A stretch of 30,177 nt of DNA from a virus (lineage: Duplodnaviria > Caudoviricetes). The notes beneath the pieces are model-generated. The model was not told where the DNA came from. It saw only the letters and a program-made list of their open reading frames with translations, and made no database searches. The stretch spans positions 1 to 30,177 of the IMG/VR virus record IMGVR_UViG_3300010331_000033; one strand, 5' to 3'. Shown one piece after another: positions 4,476 to 20,535 of this stretch. Position 1 is the first letter of the stretch. Each line of letters opens with the position of its first letter. Position numbers and translations under genes: made by a program.

Positions 4476-5075
4476 TTAATTAAAGTCATAACTAAAATCT
4501 AAAGAAAAATCACCTCCTGTTAGGTTACTTGTCAGTGTCAAACTATCCCTTTCCTCAGCTGGTTTAGAAAATATCTTGTCAGACATATGAATATCAAAGC
4601 CGATACCTGCCAAAATGCTACGTGCATTTTTGTAATACTCAATATAAGTCCTCAGTTTAGTCAGAGAATCAGTATTAAAAGAACCTAGATCAGAGGGTGA
4701 TAACCTGATCCTAAAAGCACACCATGTATTTTCTGTCTCACCAGACAAGGGTACATTTTCTTCAATGGCCGTTGGCGTATATCCAATAAGGGAACAAGCT
4801 TTGCGAATCGTGGAGATAGTGCCGACATGTCTATGTAAGTCTATAGCGCTTTTTATGAGCTCTCTTTTTTGTGAGGTAGTCTGGCATAAATCATAACCTT
4901 TGAAACTGTCTACATCAAATTGTTTGGCAAGCCATGGCAGGGCTGAAGCTGCAACAGTATCAATGAGATTTACCATCATCGGTGTGAGGTCAAAGTCATC
5001 AAAACGGTGTGAGGCGATAGTATCAAACTCACCTATTCTGGACGAAGCGACAGCTGAAGACATTAACTTATTCAT
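4476..5075 (-). CDS. Phage tail protein I (P2 gpI-like)
   Basis: LPWLAKQF, KRELIKSAIDLHRHVGT and YKNARS motifs; follows baseplate J. Confidence 0.85.
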   Translation of the reverse strand: MNKLMSSAVASSRIGEFDTIASHRFDDFDLTPMMVNLIDTVAASALPWLAKQFDVDSFKGYDLCQTTSQKRELIKSAIDLHRHVGTISTIRKACSLIGYTPTAIEENVPLSGETENTWCAFRIRLSPSDLGSFNTDSLTKLRTYIEYYKNARSILAGIGFDIHMSDKIFSKPAEERDSLTLTSNLTGGDFSLDFSYDFN

Positions 5076-6538
5076 CTTCTGTAGGTGCTATGTTGATTAT
5101 TATTCCTGTTAAATGAGAGACAGCGTTATTTGCAATAACCAGATTGTCAGAAGATGCTACACCGTTGATGGTTAATGTTGCATCGGCATCGTAAACACCT
5201 GTAAGCATTGATAGAGCCTCGATTTTTGAGGTAACGATATTTCTACCCATCTTTTTACCTGCTTCAGCAGCATAATCGGATAATGCAGTATAAACTCTAT
5301 TGGTTAAGTCAGGGGTAGCCTCATCGGTAGTATAGATGTTTACTGTTATTTCATAGTTTATGACCGTTGGTGACTTAAACAACTATATCCGTAATGGGAC
5401 GAATATTCTCATCGTTAAGAACAGCCTCTATGCTATCGTTTATCACTGTAGCGGTAGATTTTCCTTTTTTGGGGGCATATATAATAAAATTTATCCCTGT
5501 CACGCCAGCATCACAAGTTGGATCGGCACAATCACCAATGGTATTTTTTTCGAAATAAACTTCACTATCCTGTCCACTTACTGTCCATCCCGCAGCACCA
5601 GCAGATCGTATACGGTCACAAACCTGATTACCTGTCTCATGAGCTATAACATTGTAAGAAAAGACAATACCATCAAGTGTGACAATAAAGACACCGCTTG
5701 TGGTTACGGCTTCGCCTGTTATTAAATTACTTAGGATATCCAATTGAACAATCTCTTTGACTCCACCATATTTTGGATCAGTAGATAAACCCTCAGCAGA
5801 TAATAAAGCGTAGACATCAACCTCACCTTTAGCAATTGAATTATCCTCATTATAAGTCATTATACCTACATCAATAACAAGGGGGCTGGCTGTACGTGCC
5901 CAATATTTATAAGCTCCTACAGGTCCTGCACAAGAAAAGGTAGAAGGAGCAAGGAAAATGCGTTCCTGAAGCTCACTATCTGTCTCGGCATCAGAACCGC
6001 CGTAGGTGATATCCGTGTTTGTCACGGCAGTAACAAAAGCCCATGGGTCCTGAATAACTGATATTGTTCCTACAGCGTAACCATTCCCACTTTTTCCAGC
6101 TGTCTGGCAAGTAGCCAAGATACTAACAGTATTCATTGAGGTAGGAATGACAAGATCATCAATAGTCTCAAAAATAACTGATCCATCTGTGCTGGCTACA
6201 CGTGTGCCAAGGGGGATAAAAACCTGTAGATGTCCGGGGATAATGGAAAAACTCAGATTACAAGTCGCTTTAGCTTCAGCTAGTCTGGCAACACCTAGTA
6301 GCTGACCAAGATAATCCAGCACGGGGTAAGTGGCAAAGGATACCAATTGAGATTTACCAGCTGCATTAATTCTGTTTCTAAGTAATACCTCACGATAAGC
6401 CATTGAGGTGCAGAATGAATACTCAGGTTGTCCGGGAAAAATCGCATAACCTGTCAGAGCTTCAAACTCTATCAATATCTCAGACAGAATCTCTGCTGGG
6501 TCAACGGGAACAAAAATAGGCTCATCCATAGTTTTCAT
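5068..6538 (-). CDS. Baseplate J/gp47 family protein, split by a frameshift at ~5377 (ORFs 5375..6538 + 5068..5382)
   Basis: LDYLG, GGSDAETDSELQERI, S-AGP-GAY-YWA and RPITD motifs. Coding continues as KSPTVINYEITV in another frame after GTT GTT T AAG. Confidence 0.85.
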
Positions 6539-8681: not shown

Positions 8682-9504
8682 CTCCTTCTCTACTGCCTAT
8701 GAAAGCCACTACAGGTACACTAGATACTGATAGTAAAGAGACGGCACTGCCTAATGTCACGTTTGCATTTAGCAAATCATTGAAGCTATTGATATCCGCA
8801 GCATTTCGAACGAATTGCGCAGCAACAGCAGCATTAGTCAGTGCCGTTCTTAATGAGGTGACTCTATAGATAAGTTTTTTTGTATTGTTGATCTGAGTGT
8901 TGGCAGCCTCAAACGATTTTTTTGCTTCGCTGGCAAGGCTGGCAATCTTTTTATACATACCCATTGACGGCTCAGAGGTCACATGTGAGCTTATCTGGTT
9001 GCTACTCATAATACCTTTTGTGATATTATCATGTATGCTCTGAGCAGTGCTACTAAGTTGCACCGCTTTTATTTCTGATGGGGGTAGTTTGCTGGCAAGG
9101 GCCTCACCTGTATTTTTTGTTTTTGTAATGGAATTATATTCCAAAAGTGATATTGTTGCAGATATAGCTGTTGGCGTTCCGTTGGCAAGACATTGAGTGT
9201 TTGATACATCAATGTTTTTAATGACATATTTTCCATAATTACGACCTATTCCATCGATCAAAGGAAGCACCTCGGCATTTATCCGACTTAGGTTAAGGGC
9301 TGCAATCTCCTCAGTAGGGTTACAAAATTCAGAAGAGAGGAAAATACCAAAAGACTGCTCAATAAGATTTTCACCGACAGCCTGAACGGATGGTTTACCG
9401 TTGATAAGTGGTATCTGGCTATACTCAGTGGAATAAGATATATCCCAACTTTGAGGTAGCTTGATGCCTTGAAATTTATATGTTCCTAGTTGTAAAAACA
9501 TCAA
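8668..9504 (-). CDS. Tail tube initiator (P2 gpU-like) with helical C-terminal extension
   Basis: LQLG---F, GKPSVQAVGENL, LPLIDG-G--YGKYVI and ISLLEY motifs; follows the tape measure. Confidence 0.75.
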   Translation of the reverse strand: MMFLQLGTYKFQGIKLPQSWDISYSTEYSQIPLINGKPSVQAVGENLIEQSFGIFLSSEFCNPTEEIAALNLSRINAEVLPLIDGIGRNYGKYVIKNIDVSNTQCLANGTPTAISATISLLEYNSITKTKNTGEALASKLPPSEIKAVQLSSTAQSIHDNITKGIMSSNQISSHVTSEPSMGMYKKIASLASEAKKSFEAANTQINNTKKLIYRVTSLRTALTNAAVAAQFVRNAADINSFNDLLNANVTLGSAVSLLSVSSVPVVAFIGSREGGEYV

Positions 9505-11070
9505 TAGGTTGTTCTAGCAAGGTTTAAATTCCATTTCTTCATCTGTCTGGCAAATTCTTTCTGAGAATCTTGAGAGACTTTTTCAATATCCGATTTACTG
9601 GCATTGCCCTGCACGATGATAGTAGGGGAGTATGTTACTTGTTGGTTGGCAGCAATAGGCTTTCTAATCATTACGGCTGTTGATGCTGGTTGTGTTTTAC
9701 TTGCATCTTTGGATCTCTCCACAGCAAGGATTTCTCTATGTCTTGTTGAAATGTTTGAAACCAGAGCAGCACTGTTTTGCATGGCCTTGACTTTAGCATC
9801 ATATCCATTCAACGCCTTGACACCTTTTTTAGCTTCATCATAGGCAGCGGCAAACTTCCCATGAAAGACCAGACTTATAGCCTTACCCATACTGCCTAGC
9901 CCCGTGATTATCCCTTTGATACGGTCTAAGACAAAATCCTTAAGGATGTTTCCAAATCCCTTGACGGTATCCCAGACGGTGAGTATAACAGCCCTGAATC
10001 CTGCGAATTTCTTCCAACAGATCACGACAGCAGCGACAACAGCGAGTATAATGGCAGGTATCCAAAATAATGGACTGGCAAGAAATGCAAGATTCATTCC
10101 CGTAGTTGCATACTGTACGGCAAAGACAGCAAACTGTAGAGCCTTGAAAACAGCAATTGCCCCCTGTACAAGCTTTATCGTCAAAGTAACCGTACGTATT
10201 GCAACAGTTGCAGCGATAAGACCGATACCTATCTTAGCAATGGTCTTAATTAATTTATGGTTGTTACCGATCCATTCAGTCACCTTTAAGAATAGTGAGG
10301 AAACGGAAACATTGGTTTTATCAACAGCGGGCAAGAATGCCATTCCAATAGATTCAACAACCTCACCAAAACCAACCTTTATTTTACTAGTTGATTTTGC
10401 AGTAGCTTCAGCTGTACCCTTAAACTGTCTCTCAACAGCTTTTAAGATATATTCCGTGCAGCACCTAGACCTTTAGTGAGTTGGATCTGTTTAACTAAAG
10501 CAACATCACCAAAATCAAGTGTTCCAGCTTTCTTCATAGCAGCAGCACCATTCATAGGGTCGTTCAAAGCTTTGCCTAACGCTACAGCATTTGTCGCTGC
10601 CTCACCAAAACCACCAGCGGCCATGTCATGAGCAGCAACCGTAGCACGATCAAATAATCCGGTCATTACAGCTGTTTGGGAAGAGACGTTCTTAAACGTT
10701 GCTATCTTAGCTTGTGTCAAAGCAATAATCTCATCTTAACACCTATCTGCATAGCGAGCTTACTGGCATATTTAAGTTGATCCTCAGCAGCTTTATTGGC
10801 AAGTGGTGAGTTGTTCCACATTTGCTTATAAGCATTTTTCAAGCGATTAACAGCTACCCTGGAGTCCTCGGCTGCATCAATAGATTTCCAAAGCCCGGCA
10901 GCAGCAACACCACCTGCAACAAACATCTTATTTGAAACAGAGTTGACACCTGCCATAACAGCCTCAAGCTTCTTCATCTTCATTTGAGACTTTGAAACAG
11001 CCTGACTCACCACCCTTGACATCTTATCAGTTGCGGAAAGTATTAATCCAACTTTTGTAGTATTTGCCAT
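9501..11070 (-). CDS. Tape measure protein (~523 aa when repaired), split by two 1-nt deletions at ~10736 and ~10455
   Basis: LSATDKMS start, ALGKALNDP motif, Ala-rich helical and TM-like segments. Adding one A at each break gives QIGVKDEIIALTQAK and GLGAAQEYILKAVERQFKG, open to the stop at 9501. Confidence 0.85.
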
Positions 11071-14774: not shown

Positions 14775-16804
14775 TTATTGACCGTTGTTTTTGAACAACC
14801 CACGATAGTCGATTGCGTTGGCCCCAAATTCACCTCTTACAGCAAACTTGATAGAGTCAGAATCGAAATCCTCTTCACGGTTGGAACGGAGACCTTCGTT
14901 ACCGTCAAGGTAACAATGGTAAAGGCCATCTACTGCATTAGGATCAGCAGCCAGGTACCAAGCTTTACCACTCAAGCGAGGTTCAACAAGAACTTGCAGA
15001 TTCATTGCAGAGAAAACGTTGATATCAGCGGTTTTGGTAGGGGTGATAGAAGTGATCAACATGCTTGCATCAACTTCGTATTCAGGAGACACGATGATGA
15101 AACGAGGAAGGATGCGTAAAATCTTCTTACCATCCAATGCTTTCTGAGACTTCATAGCCAAAATAGCAGCTTTCAAAGTAGTGGCTGAAATGACACCGGC
15201 AGCACTTGCAAGGTTAGCATGATCAGCATGAAACAAAGTCTTTGTATCATTCATGGTAACATTACTTGTGATCAAAGCCCAAATGATGTCACCTCTTTGA
15301 GTATTCCAATCAAGGACAAAGCGGTTAGGGATTATGGAGAAAGCAGAAAGATCATCGTTGATCATTGCTTGTCTGGTGAACTTAATACCTTCAGCAAATG
15401 ATTTTGCCTGCAAAGTTTGTTTTGCTTCAATAAGGGAGGTGTACTTGATGTCTTCACCTTCAGCGATTTCTTTCATACCACTTTTAGAATCTACCTGATA
15501 CAGGCTTTTGGCCTTGAAATCAGATACGGTAGTTTGTTGGAGATCTTATCCCAATATTCAGGAGCAAAAACATAGTCACCTCTTAAAAGCTTGTTGCTGA
15601 CATTTTCCAACAATAAAGGAAAATCAGAAGTGGATAAGTCACGGGAACCTTTGAGGATACATCCGGCAAGTTCCATTTTACTCATTGCTCTTACATTGAC
15701 GCCACGTTCAATAAGCAGTTCTTTTCCCATTTCCATAATGGTCATACCACGATATTCACCACCTTCGTTCTTCTCATCTTTGAAAGTAGAAGGGGAGATA
15801 CGATGCAATAAAGCTGTTTCGATTGCTTGACGTTTGCCTGCAATAGCTTCGTGTCCGATAGAGATCACTTTAGGATCAGCTTTCTTGAAATCAGTGATAA
15901 TTTGCTGACGGATAGCTTCAATAGTATCATCACTGTTGAACATCTCGATAGCTTTAGCATCGTCTAGTCCAGCAGCGCGGGTGCTCAAAGTAATAGCATC
16001 CATACGGTTTCTTTGAGCTAACGTAGCAGCAGCACGAATAGCCTCAACATTTACAGGTACCTCAGCCTTTACAGCTGGATTTTCAGAACGAATAGCCTCA
16101 ATGGTCTTTTCGCTCTGATACAACTCTACTACTTTACCGTCAATCTTGGCGGCACGGCAGACAGAGATAATTGCTTCCAAACGAGCTATTTGCTCGTTAT
16201 TCGCGTTTGCTCGAATCTCTTCAATTGTAAACATCTTTGGTTTATTAGGGTTATCTAAAATAAAAGGGTTAAAAAAATCTTTATCACGCATCGTTGAGTT
16301 GATGTCAGCAGGTATAGGAGCGATGGCCACATGGTTTGGCTCCCAATCGGTCATCTGATAAGTAACTACGTTAGTCACCTTATCGTCCATCCTGATACCT
16401 TTGTAGATGGTATATCCCACAGAGAAGGTGTTTAGGATGCCACTCTTTAAGTCGGCTCTGGTCTTATCACTACATTGAGCACCAAGGGTCACGGTACCGA
16501 TCATATTATTGTTTTCAAAGCGGACATTACCGATCTTACCCATGACGTCTTCGGGTTTTGTTCCAACACCATAAGAAGGATGTGCATTCAACAGTGATAG
16601 TCCGGCATTAATGCGCTCCATACGTACATTTGCCTCACGACACAAAAGAACTTCATGATAGTTCGCATCCCAATTGGTTCTTAAGACAGGTGTCTCAGTC
16701 GCAAAGGTTATGTCAAAAGTACCGAACTCCTCGTTAAAGGAATTTTGTACGATTTCAGCTCGTGTGAACTGCATACCTGCTTTGAGGGTCATTGGTTTTG
16801 CCAT
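14775..16804 (-). CDS. Prohead protease - major capsid fusion protein (~676 aa when repaired), split by a 1-nt deletion at ~15537
   Basis: Protease part: LLNAH, FSVGY, WEP--V-IAPIPAD. Capsid part: STSDFPLLL, TRQAMINDDL. Adding one A gives WDKISKQTTVSDFKAKSLYQVDSKSGMKEI. Confidence 0.88.
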
Positions 16805-18527: not shown

Positions 18528-18556
18528 AAAAAAAAAGCCCCAATAATGTGGAGCTT
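18528..18556 (-). terminator. Intrinsic terminator after HTH gene (copy 1 of duplicated terminator)
   Basis: Minus strand AAGCTCCACATTATTGGGGCTT followed by a long T run. Confidence 0.7.
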
Positions 18557-18576
18557 AAAAAAAATATTTAAAAAAA

Positions 18577-18876
18577 TTACAGTTGAAGTATGCCAAAAAT
18601 CCTTTCTAATATTTCAAATGGGATGCTTCGTTTTCCTGAAAGGAAGTTTTTAAAATTGCTATAATCATAATCAATATCCTTAGAAAATTGATTAACGGAT
18701 AAGCCCTCTTCGGCTAATTTGTTTTTGATAGCTATACGGATGTCTTTTTTTACATACGCCTGCTTAGTCTCAAAATTGAAACCTACATTGTAGCCCGGGC
18801 AAAGTTTTTGAAGTGCAAGAAGCTGTTCGCCTGTTTTGCACTCTGAAATTATTTTTATCAATTCTATTGTTTTCAT
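18577..18876 (-). CDS. XRE/Cro-type HTH regulator, candidate Aca-like repressor
   Basis: C-terminal IKNKLAEEGLSVNQFSKDIDYDYSNFKNFLSGKRSIPFEILERIF; last gene of the island. Confidence 0.75.
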   Translation of the reverse strand: MKTIELIKIISECKTGEQLLALQKLCPGYNVGFNFETKQAYVKKDIRIAIKNKLAEEGLSVNQFSKDIDYDYSNFKNFLSGKRSIPFEILERIFGILQL

Positions 18877-18896
18877 AAAATTCTTTTTTATATTTG
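18867..18896 (+). promoter_or_regulatory. Bacteroidota-type sigma-A promoter for the plus-strand RNA
   Basis: TTG (18867-69) - 19 nt - TATATTTG (18889-96) fits the -33/-7 consensus TTG-N19-TAnnTTTG. Confidence 0.6.
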
Positions 18897-18916
18897 TGGT
18901 GTCCGGATGCCGAAAG

Positions 18917-18946
18917 GCACTAATCAGACCAATCTGGAATTGAAAT
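18917..18946 (+). CRISPR. Solitary 30-nt type I-B/III-like CRISPR repeat (repeat A)
   Basis: GCACTAATCAGACCAATCTGGAATTGAAAT; ends in the canonical 8-nt Cas6 handle ATTGAAAT. Confidence 0.6.
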
Positions 18947-18996
18947 ATTAGATGTAATTATCTGGACAATTCGCTGCAAAGCGTGGATTAAAACAA

Positions 18997-19015
18997 AATT
19001 TCTACTATTGTAGAT
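18997..19015 (+). CRISPR. Solitary type V-A (Cas12a) crRNA handle
   Basis: AATTTCTACTATTGTAGAT equals the conserved AATTTCTAC-loop-GTAGAT mature Cas12a repeat. Confidence 0.85.
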
Positions 19016-19037
19016 TGTGATTTACTTCACAGAATTT

Positions 19038-19066
19038 AAGCAGGGCTTTAAAACCCTGCTTTTTTT
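19038..19066 (+). terminator. Intrinsic terminator of the plus-strand RNA
   Basis: AAGCAGGG-CTTTAAAA-CCCTGCTT followed by a T run. The U-tract is on the + strand although all protein genes are on the - strand. Confidence 0.8.
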
Positions 19067-19235
19067 ATTTCATTTCGACAATTCTAATCCAAAACAAATC
19101 TTCCAATTTGCATTTTTCAACCTCGGCGTTTCTTTGTATTACAGCCTCTTTATGAGATGCCGCAGTGATTTCTTTGGTGTCCAGTTCGTTTAGCTGGCGA
19201 TCTTCGTAAATTAGCTTGAATTTGAGATCTTTCAT
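19065..19235 (-). CDS. Small hypothetical protein (56 aa), candidate Acr/host-takeover factor
   Basis: Not in track: MKDLKFKLIYEDRQLNELDTKEITAASHKEAVIQRNAEVEKCKLEDLFWIRIVEMK; starts 10 nt after the upstream stop. Confidence 0.6.
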   Translation of the reverse strand: MKDLKFKLIYEDRQLNELDTKEITAASHKEAVIQRNAEVEKCKLEDLFWIRIVEMK

Positions 19236-19245
19236 GATCTTTTTG

Positions 19246-19704
19246 TTATTTCAATAAAGCTTCAGCTTCTTCGGCTTTTGAGGCGTATTTTTTATTCAGC
19301 TCTTCTATTCGATTATTCAGCAATTTAACAAAAGGAACAATTCCGACGCGGGTAAATTTTGTAATAGGCAGATTAATGTTTGATTCATCGTCTTTTAGCC
19401 GAAATTCTTTATATGTTTTGTATTTGCCAGTGTAAATATCTTTTTCGCAGTCCCAGATTCGCCCATCATGCTCTACAGCAATAGCCCAAAAATTTGAATC
19501 ATCTTCATCCTTTTGAGGCTCAATGTCGGAAAAAGGTTTTACATACATTGTAAAAAAAGATTTGCTTAAGTCGTAACCATCAAGCATTTTCGCAAATGCA
19601 GGAATAATTTCGTTTTCAGTTTTTTCAATAAGTTGATTAAAAATAGCGGTTCTTTTGTCGCTGATTTGTGCAGCTTCCTGAAATAATTCATCAAAAGTTT
19701 TCAT
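19246..19704 (-). CDS. Acidic hypothetical protein (152 aa), candidate Acr
   Basis: Asp/Glu/Lys-rich; no family recognised; directly downstream of repeat B. Confidence 0.6.
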   Translation of the reverse strand: MKTFDELFQEAAQISDKRTAIFNQLIEKTENEIIPAFAKMLDGYDLSKSFFTMYVKPFSDIEPQKDEDDSNFWAIAVEHDGRIWDCEKDIYTGKYKTYKEFRLKDDESNINLPITKFTRVGIVPFVKLLNNRIEELNKKYASKAEEAEALLK

Positions 19705-19759
19705 AATATAAAGTATTAATTTTTTTGCCTACTCTGTTTAGCGGTTTTCGGCATCCACG

Positions 19760-19789
19760 CTTTAAAATCCAAGATGGTCTGATTGTTTC
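19760..19789 (-). CRISPR. Second solitary I-B-like repeat (repeat B)
   Basis: GAAACAATCAGACCATCTTGGATTTTAAAG aligns ungapped to repeat A at 21/30 positions (core AATCAGACCA---TGGA-TT-AAA). Confidence 0.5.
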
Positions 19790-19817
19790 CCCGTAAAGCC
19801 GGTAGGACAGCATTAAA

Positions 19818-19961
19818 CTATTTTACTGAAATGTGATCAGAATCAGAAACGAAGTTTTTAAGCTGAGCTTTAAAGATGCTGATTGCTTCGTTTTTACTAC
19901 GTGCATTAACTTCGCGTGAACTAAAAGTAGTTGATACTTTGTAAAATTTAATAGTTGCCAT
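19818..19961 (-). CDS. Small hypothetical protein (47 aa)
   Basis: Not in track: MATIKFYKVSTTFSSREVNARSKNEAISIFKAQLKNFVSDSDHISVK. Confidence 0.55.
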   Translation of the reverse strand: MATIKFYKVSTTFSSREVNARSKNEAISIFKAQLKNFVSDSDHISVK

Positions 19962-19973
19962 GACCTTCGAGTA

Positions 19974-20180
19974 TTAAAAGTTTTTTACTAAATTAAATCT
20001 ATCAGCTATTTGACCTGCTACTGTGATACATTTTCCTTTGTAGGATACTTCACCGTCTTTTATAAAGACGCGATCATTTCTTTTCGCTCTTACTACTACT
20101 ACGATGATACCATTTTCTTCAGAAGCAAGACAGTAAGGGATTTCGCTGTTGATAATTTCAATAATTTCAGTTGTTTCCAT
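19974..20180 (-). CDS. Small hypothetical protein (68 aa), candidate Acr
   Basis: ORF track; second gene of the island operon. Confidence 0.6.
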   Translation of the reverse strand: METTEIIEIINSEIPYCLASEENGIIVVVVRAKRNDRVFIKDGEVSYKGKCITVAGQIADRFNLVKNF

Positions 20181-20198
20181 TGTGGTGTATATTTTAAA

Positions 20199-20390
20199 TT
20201 AAAATTCAAACATAAAATCATATTGCTTTTTAGCGGCTATTTTTACTTCTTCAGATTCGCCGAATTCATTAAATATTGATTCGAGTACTGATTCAAATGA
20301 AACGAATCCTTCTTCATCGCCATTTGATATTACAAATGATTCAACTCTACTTTGAATTCTTGATCTTGTGATAAAGTCTATTGTTGTCAT
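20199..20390 (-). CDS. Small acidic hypothetical protein (63 aa), candidate Acr
   Basis: First gene after the island promoter; Glu/Phe-rich. Confidence 0.6.
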   Translation of the reverse strand: MTTIDFITRSRIQSRVESFVISNGDEEGFVSFESVLESIFNEFGESEEVKIAAKKQYDFMFEF

Positions 20391-20432
20391 TGTCGTGGTT
20401 ATTAGTAGTTGTTATTGTTCTTAATCATGTAT

Positions 20433-20464
20433 CAAAGATAGTGTCAAATGTGACATTATCCAAA
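20433..20464 (-). promoter_or_regulatory. Consensus Bacteroidota promoter with palindromic operator in the spacer
   Basis: Minus strand TTTG (20464-61) - 20 nt - TATCTTTG (20440-33); inverted repeat TGTCA-N4-TGACA at 20442-20455. Confidence 0.8.
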
Positions 20465-20507
20465 TAAATAGAGTTAATAAACGTTAACTTTATTGATTAT
20501 TTTACAT

Positions 20508-20535
20508 AAAAAAAGCCCCAACAAATGTGGAGCTT
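20508..20535 (-). terminator. Intrinsic terminator at terL stop (copy 2 of duplicated terminator)
   Basis: Minus strand AAGCTCCACATTTGTTGGGGCTT plus T run; nearly identical to 18528-18556. Confidence 0.7.

Follow-up and report, generated by a model that had tools for sequence, protein, structure and literature searches.

A phage small RNA chaining type I-B, I-C and V-A CRISPR repeat mimics is a candidate mixed-type decoy anti-CRISPR

We analysed a 30,177-nt stretch of phage DNA (hereafter the window) and found on its plus strand a predicted small RNA of about 165 nt (18900..19066; fold z −3.3) in which mimics of type I-B, I-C and V-A CRISPR repeats follow one another within 99 nt. The three mimics match real repeat classes, the segments behind them are short or self-paired, and the design recurs in other phages. 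Judged from sequence, the best explanation is that the RNA acts as a mixed-type decoy anti-CRISPR, a reading to which we give a probability of about 0.68. We also lean towards the broader view that Bacteroidota phages have arrived, probably on more than one occasion, at a modular mixed-type array of shuffled I-B, I-C and V-A repeat mimics, which the host enzyme present, whichever it is, would cut into targetless crRNA decoys, so that one 165-nt gene is directed against both CRISPR classes. If this is true, it would be a natural anti-CRISPR in which a single small RNA covers two CRISPR classes, and a compact template for broad CRISPR off-switches.

A small RNA gene with three repeat modules

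The RNA gene begins with a predicted promoter of Bacteroidota type (18867..18896, +), in which TTG at 18867-69 is followed after 19 nt by the −7 box TATATTTG at 18889-96; the call was made against what we take to be the Bacteroidota consensus. The gene ends in an intrinsic terminator (19038..19066) with its stem at 19038-61 followed by a T run. A bidirectional terminator was considered and rejected, since the signal is confined to the plus strand.

Between these signals, all on the plus strand, 18900-08 is predicted to pair with 18960-68 in a closing stem (18900..18968) that encloses a GAAA hairpin (18909-18) and the first module, a type I-B repeat mimic. This module is a 30-mer ending ATTGAAAT (18917..18946) with a predicted 8-nt handle at 18939-46, and it is followed by a 23-nt pseudo-spacer (18947..18969) whose 3′ part pairs in the closing stem. 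Next comes the type I-C repeat mimic (18970..18994), consisting of a 4-bp hairpin (18972-83) and a predicted 11-nt handle (18984-94), and 2 nt after that handle lies an exact Cas12a (type V-A) crRNA handle (18997..19015). At the Cas12a seed position the RNA pairs with itself (19016..19031), forming from a 5+6+5 palindrome a hairpin of −4.9 kcal/mol, a value reached by 0.4% of 1000 shuffles. The original prediction had laid out a promoter, a 30-nt repeat, 50 nt, a Cas12a handle, 22 nt to the terminator stem and a U-tailed terminator, and all were found at the positions claimed. It had counted two repeat mimics; both of these stood and the count did not, as the type I-C mimic (18970-94) lies inside the 50-nt gap.

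Comparison with shuffled sequences showed that these words are rare by chance. The Cas12a handle pattern matched once against 0.01 expected, the I-B pattern with at most 3 mismatches matched twice against 0.02 expected, and the 14-nt I-C pattern matched once, with no match in 100 shuffles. The window's I-C handle is one position off real repeats, and its stem has just 4 bp. Rfam holds no family for the small RNA.

The mimics match repeats of real arrays

Allowing at most 3 mismatches in 25 nt, the 30-mer was present in 4 of 401 Bacteroidota genomes, and 4 of the 4 sites were arrays. Five host array repeats are identical to it at 22-24 of 30 positions. The cas loci inspected near these arrays were, where a type could be assigned, of type I-B; one neighbourhood (G236) contains cas1b, cas6, Cas7/Csh2, Cas5b and Cas3, and another (G071) contains the PGING variant of I-B. 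The proposal that the 30-mer represents a CRISPR repeat class was thus borne out, the class being a type I-B one in Bacteroidota arrays near I-B cas genes.

For the second module, 8 of 151 Bacteroidales genomes contain cas5d, and the I-C mimic agrees with five arrays beside cas5d at 13 of 14 positions at the 3′ end and at 4 of 5 at the 5′ end. For the third, cas12a scored above the cut-off in 6 of the 151 genomes, and the exact 19-mer of the window forms the repeat end in four arrays next to it. Type V-A is present in about 4-5% of the sampled Bacteroidales genomes, and type I-C likewise. At one locus (L507), cas12a is preceded at a distance of ~90 nt by a single V-A handle, which is a CreR-like host element.

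Two lysogens have a system mimicked by their own RNA: G002, with 136 I-B repeat matches, mostly in arrays, together with cas6, cas3 and cas1b, and G004, with cas5d. Among the six RNA-carrying genomes tested, cas5d was present in one and cas12a in none. An array of G002 (L185:13500-13800; G002:C144, −) passes from I-B repeats straight into two I-C repeats with regular spacers, and this junction, ordered as in the phage RNA, is a possible origin of the latter.

The phage and its accessory cassette

A lambda-type terminase, a portal and a contractile tail among the window proteins indicate a temperate myovirus-like phage, of which the window is most of the genome. An identical IMG/VR record of 43.7 kb extends the window and adds an integrase gene, whose plasmid matches are exclusively Bacteroidales at an identity of ~30%. 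Because of these integrase matches and the promoter type, for which the consensus is presumed, the sequence suggests a Bacteroidota host. The terminase names no host: among 301 Bacteroidota genomes it reaches 39-40% at best, in 6, and it is 49% identical to those of Wolbachia phages. The runs listed for the stretch comprise four DNA runs labelled glacier metagenome and no RNA run, which does not bear on expression, and the RNA locus is intact within a single contig in 4 of 4, although these runs may be the window's source and are not independent. As had been predicted, there are no cas genes: profile searches found no cas family among 48 window proteins, nor among 19 others, of which the remainder of the identical 43.7-kb record supplied 18. 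Separately, the capsid/protease (15476-15491), tape measure (9501-11070) and baseplate J (5068-5382) genes each appear split into separate ORFs, a pattern that errors in the sequence, frameshifts or gene decay could produce.

The plus strand of an accessory cassette of ~2 kb (18529..20535) harbours the RNA gene. The cassette lies between terL and the head-tail adaptor gene, bounded by two similar terminator-like copies (18529-56 and 20508-35, repeat family D16). In relatives this interval measures 40-5244 bp, and in the six inspected it carries unrelated cargo; among 75 terminase-related loci, the V-A handle was found in the identical record only. In the same interval of one related phage (L372:8866-10751), a 328-aa ORF that looks reverse transcriptase-like by eye lies beside a repeated gene end, which suggests a diversity-generating retroelement.

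On the minus strand, the cassette itself consists of five small ORFs in a row, with an HTH gene last. Its predicted operon promoter (20433..20460, −; −7 box 20440-33) is overlapped by a 9+9-bp palindrome (20437-60), weak evidence given 54 such matches in the window. Then come three ORFs of 47, 68 and 63 aa (19818..20390, −), one of 152 aa (19246..19704, −) and one of 56 aa (19065..19235, −), for none of which profile searches gave a family, and finally, in an aca-like position, a 99-aa Cro/C1-type HTH gene (18577..18876, −; PF13443, E 3.5e-4, just under the cut-off). The 152-aa protein has 10 homologues besides itself and is a candidate Acr by position only. No named relative was found for it or for the 99-aa protein, no cassette neighbour matched known Acr or Aca families in Pfam, PHROGs or NCBIfam, and the 17 matches of the cassette to an annotated phage collection were short and weak, none of them real. 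The leader of the 152-aa ORF (19726..19789, −) holds a second, degenerate I-B-like repeat (19789-19760) and, after it, a motif resembling DUF805b (19761-26; Rfam RF02914 at 33.4 bits, short of the 35.6 cut-off). An 11-nt word of this leader is that of the RNA's 5′ end, and these are its only two sites in the 43.7-kb record. The leader (19789-19726, −) resembles a repeat-led mRNA.

This arrangement could also suit a sensor or regulator, an antisense RNA that host Cas proteins would cut so that the output of the operon and its HTH gene is tuned to the CRISPR status of the host. The RNA gene does lie in antisense orientation, flanked by the 56-aa ORF and the HTH gene, with a terminator acting on the plus strand only, the second repeat is located in a sense leader, and both flanking ORFs lie on the strand opposite to the RNA in 56 of 72 cores of the family described below, among the matches listed. 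We nevertheless regard such a role as rather improbable: full effector handles and seed-blocking hairpins are retained, exceeding the needs of cleavage alone, and the neighbouring genes differ freely between phages. For a decoy, antisense placement inside an operon of acr-aca-like layout would keep cleavable repeats off the mRNA.

The design recurs in other phages

The original prediction had proposed a search of other phages for co-located repeat pairs, and we found that the layout recurs. A search pattern in which a gap separates an I-B handle from a V-A handle behind it retrieved 39 viral loci: 31 with I-B and I-C modules (one being the window's copy), three with I-B and a degenerate I-C, one with I-C only and four lone V-A handles. 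An I-C handle thus stands between the I-B and V-A handles in 32 of 39 loci, and in degenerate form in three more, in a search that did not require it. Likewise, a V-A handle follows in 33 of the 41 loci retrieved with an I-B plus I-C pattern that did not require V-A; one of the other eight lacks an intact handle, and the remainder resemble arrays or chance. A third pattern, I-C handle plus V-A handle, matched at least 119 viral, at least 121 metagenome and 14 genome loci, including Segatella copri, Leyella stercorea, Prevotellamassilia and one Tannerellaceae genome. Of the 14 genome loci, three are V-A arrays of the ordinary kind; another three, true members of the family, lie in bins labelled as other phyla.

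Six of these matches, at least 255 in number, lie in ordinary arrays, and 249 are solitary among the matches listed. The latter reduce to 165 distinct cores, many closely related, of which, among the matches listed, 102 have I-B, I-C and V-A modules, 56 were scored as I-C plus V-A (the I-B regular expression used for sorting misses some I-B modules) and seven have two I-C modules before V-A. Across the loci retrieved, the core most often shared is I-C plus V-A. Some members lack a module, and others have one twice or have their modules in reversed order; the reversed arrangement (V-A then I-C) was seen at 10 loci representing three distinct RNAs, all of them flanked by a −7-like box and a terminator. 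The count of 165 overstates independence, because the 155 cores with a promoter call, among the matches listed, collapse to 9 + 24 representatives at 86% similarity. One Prevotella-type lineage dominates, and six loci (L028, L040, L315, L364, L439 and L481) duplicate the locus of the window and give no independent support.

A covariance model built from 16 Prevotella-type RNAs, with the window excluded, gave 18907-19033 of the window a score of 43.2 bits, against 10.5 for the next best match, with the modules in equal register. A glacier phage and gut phages share that register. The model does not separate common descent from convergence, because the similarity sits mostly in repeat-derived words. 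Under strict filters it found the seed genome alone among 151 Bacteroidales genomes. Among the matches listed, and as raw counts with no shuffle control, a promoter was called in 156 of 165 cores and the closing stem in 102 of 102; the stem shows no both-side change within the family alignment, and Prevotella-type members form an equivalent one from different sequence. The linker from I-C to V-A measures 1-19 nt, with one of 26 nt, a range bounded by the 30-nt gap of the search pattern.

We considered whether the RNA might be a functionless remnant of captured host arrays, or a structured RNA of unrelated role. The G002 array, with the order of modules seen in the RNA, would fit a captured origin, as would the drift of the handles: among the matches listed, the I-B handle is intact in 36 of 102 cores and reads ATAGAAA in 46. 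The I-C stem argues otherwise. Among the matches listed it has at least 4 bp in 164 of 165 cores and is closed by C-G in 162, from 51 hairpin sequences, and both-side changes at 4 of 6 pairs are compensatory; in a small control of 14 sites, five had a stem and two were C-G closed, both of them true array ends. The V-A stem is invariant across the family, which is partly imposed by the search pattern. Together with the RNA's own promoter and terminator, the reordered versions and the equal register in a glacier phage and gut phages, these features make a remnant very unlikely.

An Rfam scan of the family gave weak matches in five loci, one of them a sub-threshold CRISPR-DR2. An annotated phage collection contained no match for two family RNAs, and plasmids none for one. 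One metagenome contig carries two I-C plus V-A matches ~3 kb apart (L273 and L274). The 3′ parts of five loci (L068, L102, L287, L330 and L331) show additional hairpins, ending GAGGATT or, in Prevotella-type RNAs, shaped like degenerate I-C repeats; these extra hairpins are possible fourth modules.

Post-handle segments do not resemble guides

The I-B segment has 23 nt in the window, with a family mode of 22-23 nt, compared with 33-37 nt for host array spacers. The I-C module is followed by 2 nt and then the Cas12a handle, leaving no spacer. Among 70 distinct 22-mers behind the Cas12a handle, from the matches listed, 70% fold at −4 kcal/mol or lower (median −6.2), against 6.6% of 106 real spacers (median −0.35) and 21% of shuffles. 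With lengths of 23 and 2 nt and a self-hairpin, the segments do not look like guides.

These data bear on a further possibility, a mixed-type Cracr array in which the I-B and V-A products would guide host effectors to repress cas or toxin promoters. Segments of 22-23 nt suit short Cracr spacers, one subfamily has an A-rich unstructured segment after the V-A handle, and the I-B segment of L256/L266 has a 12-nt match in G002, ~55 nt before the −7 box of its I-B operon, which we treat as a lead only. However, matches of a PAM plus at least 9 nt were found for none of 70 segments in the 14 sampled regions lying upstream of cas12a (1.1 in shuffles) and numbered 6 in the six whole V-A loci covered (4.4 in shuffles), and I-B seeds matched in 21 of 45 cases with no excess over shuffles (17.4, maximum 25). 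The seeds vary while the hairpins persist, and the I-C module has no spacer to guide with. On balance, we consider repression by such an array unlikely.

The segments might alternatively belong to a mini-array that borrows host effectors against competing phages. The V-A segment of the window does find a match, over a PAM plus 15 nt, in four IMG/VR stretches. They represent two sequences, however, and every match stops at 16 nt, where the palindrome ends. The palindrome (19016-19031) resembles what we take to be a CRP binding site, which may explain these four 16-nt matches. In 3.6 Mb of locus flanks (both strands), PAM-flanked seeds were found for 1 of 70 segments (shuffles 0.22, maximum 2). 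Viral mini-arrays are known to act against other phages (PMC11656645, as described there), but spacers of 23 and 2 nt behind non-identical repeats make this use highly improbable here. The original prediction had named true spacers with PAM-flanked targets as an alternative, and the guide tests gave no signal over shuffles on the few loci covered.

Proposed mechanism

Returning to the decoy reading, we placed cut sites on the RNA according to what we take to be the properties of Cas6, Cas5d and Cas12a. Cas6 would cut at 18938/39, releasing the 8-nt handle joined to the pseudo-spacer of 23 nt, part of which is paired, and giving a stunted I-B complex. Cutting by Cas5d at 18983/84 would leave no spacer, merely 2 nt and two hairpins, and Cas12a, cutting near 18996/97, would be loaded with a handle whose seed is shut in a hairpin. 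Because its I-C product overlaps its V-A product, any single molecule would serve either I-C or V-A. A resident system would in this way be drained of its processing enzyme and effector subunits by targetless complexes. With V-A and I-C each at about 4-5% of the sampled Bacteroidales genomes, one RNA covering three systems would insure the phage across varied hosts.

Single Racrs inhibit I-C and V-A systems, as reported in the text of PMC10651486. In another report, a spacer-mutated V-A RNA, a pure decoy, left the immunity of an autoregulated system unblocked (10.1101/2024.10.29.618823, in the text available). This failure and the drift of the handles limit our confidence in the decoy.

Relation to known systems

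As described by Camara-Wilpert et al. 2023 (PMC10651486), Racrs are solitary, single-type units, including RacrIC1 and RacrVA1-3. They share with the window RNA a viral setting, an intergenic position close to small genes, the mimicry of repeats and the lack of cas genes: the window RNA mimics host repeats (V-A exactly, I-B at 22-24/30, I-C in shortened form) and lies on a mobile element, in an intergenic site away from cas genes. By that description Racrs are also often linked to acr or aca genes, and the window operon is acr-aca-like in layout, with no family match. The difference is that a Racr has no other repeat within 100 bp, whereas here three mimics lie within 99 nt. In the method given there, SRUFinder groups full repeat matches within 100 bp as arrays and then discards them, and published repeat searches by design tend to overlook mixed-type RNAs. 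In the supplement of the same paper, the family's I-B sequence appears as a type I-B solitary repeat in 52 + 4 rows, matched by sequence and not locus by locus, and a V-A handle is given with the sequence and coordinates of L446; 0 rows contain the family's I-C words or two V-A loop variants. If our reading is true, dozens of I-B repeats now catalogued as 'solitary' in phages of the gut would be one module of a bigger RNA, and the family would mark anti-defence islands of Prevotella-group phages with family-less small genes.

Cracr arrays (Liu et al., 10.1101/2024.10.29.618823) share with the window RNA crRNA-like phage units, short spacers, a multiplexed transcript and a terminator of their own, and the window RNA, with repeat-like units and short spacer-like segments (23 and 22 nt) in one predicted transcript, fits this build. 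Their targets, according to that text, include types V-A, I-B and I-C, and their hosts are Pseudomonadota, Bacillota and Actinomycetota. In its main text, co-encoded Cracrs are always directed against variants of one type, whereas the window RNA combines three types of two classes. Cracrs are also described there as needing a promoter-matching guide, and no such guide was found for the window RNA in the few loci searched. By this comparison the window RNA would act like a Racr yet is non-solitary, and appears built like a Cracr array yet is mixed-type, with no detected target.

Viral mini-arrays, as characterized in PMC11656645, likewise have few repeats, no cas genes and a dependence on host effectors. 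Their repeats are described as identical to those of one host system and their full spacers as directed against related viruses; the window RNA has non-identical repeats and segments of 23 and 2 nt, against 33-37 nt. The vsgRNAs (10.64898/2026.06.01.729453) and rAcrIIA1 (10.64898/2026.06.03.729762) are also phage RNAs that fuse CRISPR RNA parts against immunity, but as presented in those texts they join the crRNA and tracrRNA of one Cas9 system, whereas the window RNA joins repeats of several systems. The acr-aca operons of 10.64898/2026.07.27.740549, by the account given there, similarly combine small genes with an HTH gene and have an inverted repeat that covers the promoter, a likeness to the window operon in layout only, with no Acr or Aca family match. 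No mixed-type phage RNA was found in the literature searched, which lay mostly outside subscription papers, and within that scope the suggestion that such a hybrid is undescribed stands. Lone Cas12a handles with terminators in other phages (L004, L010, L007 and L038) are candidates for ordinary Racrs or Cracrs.
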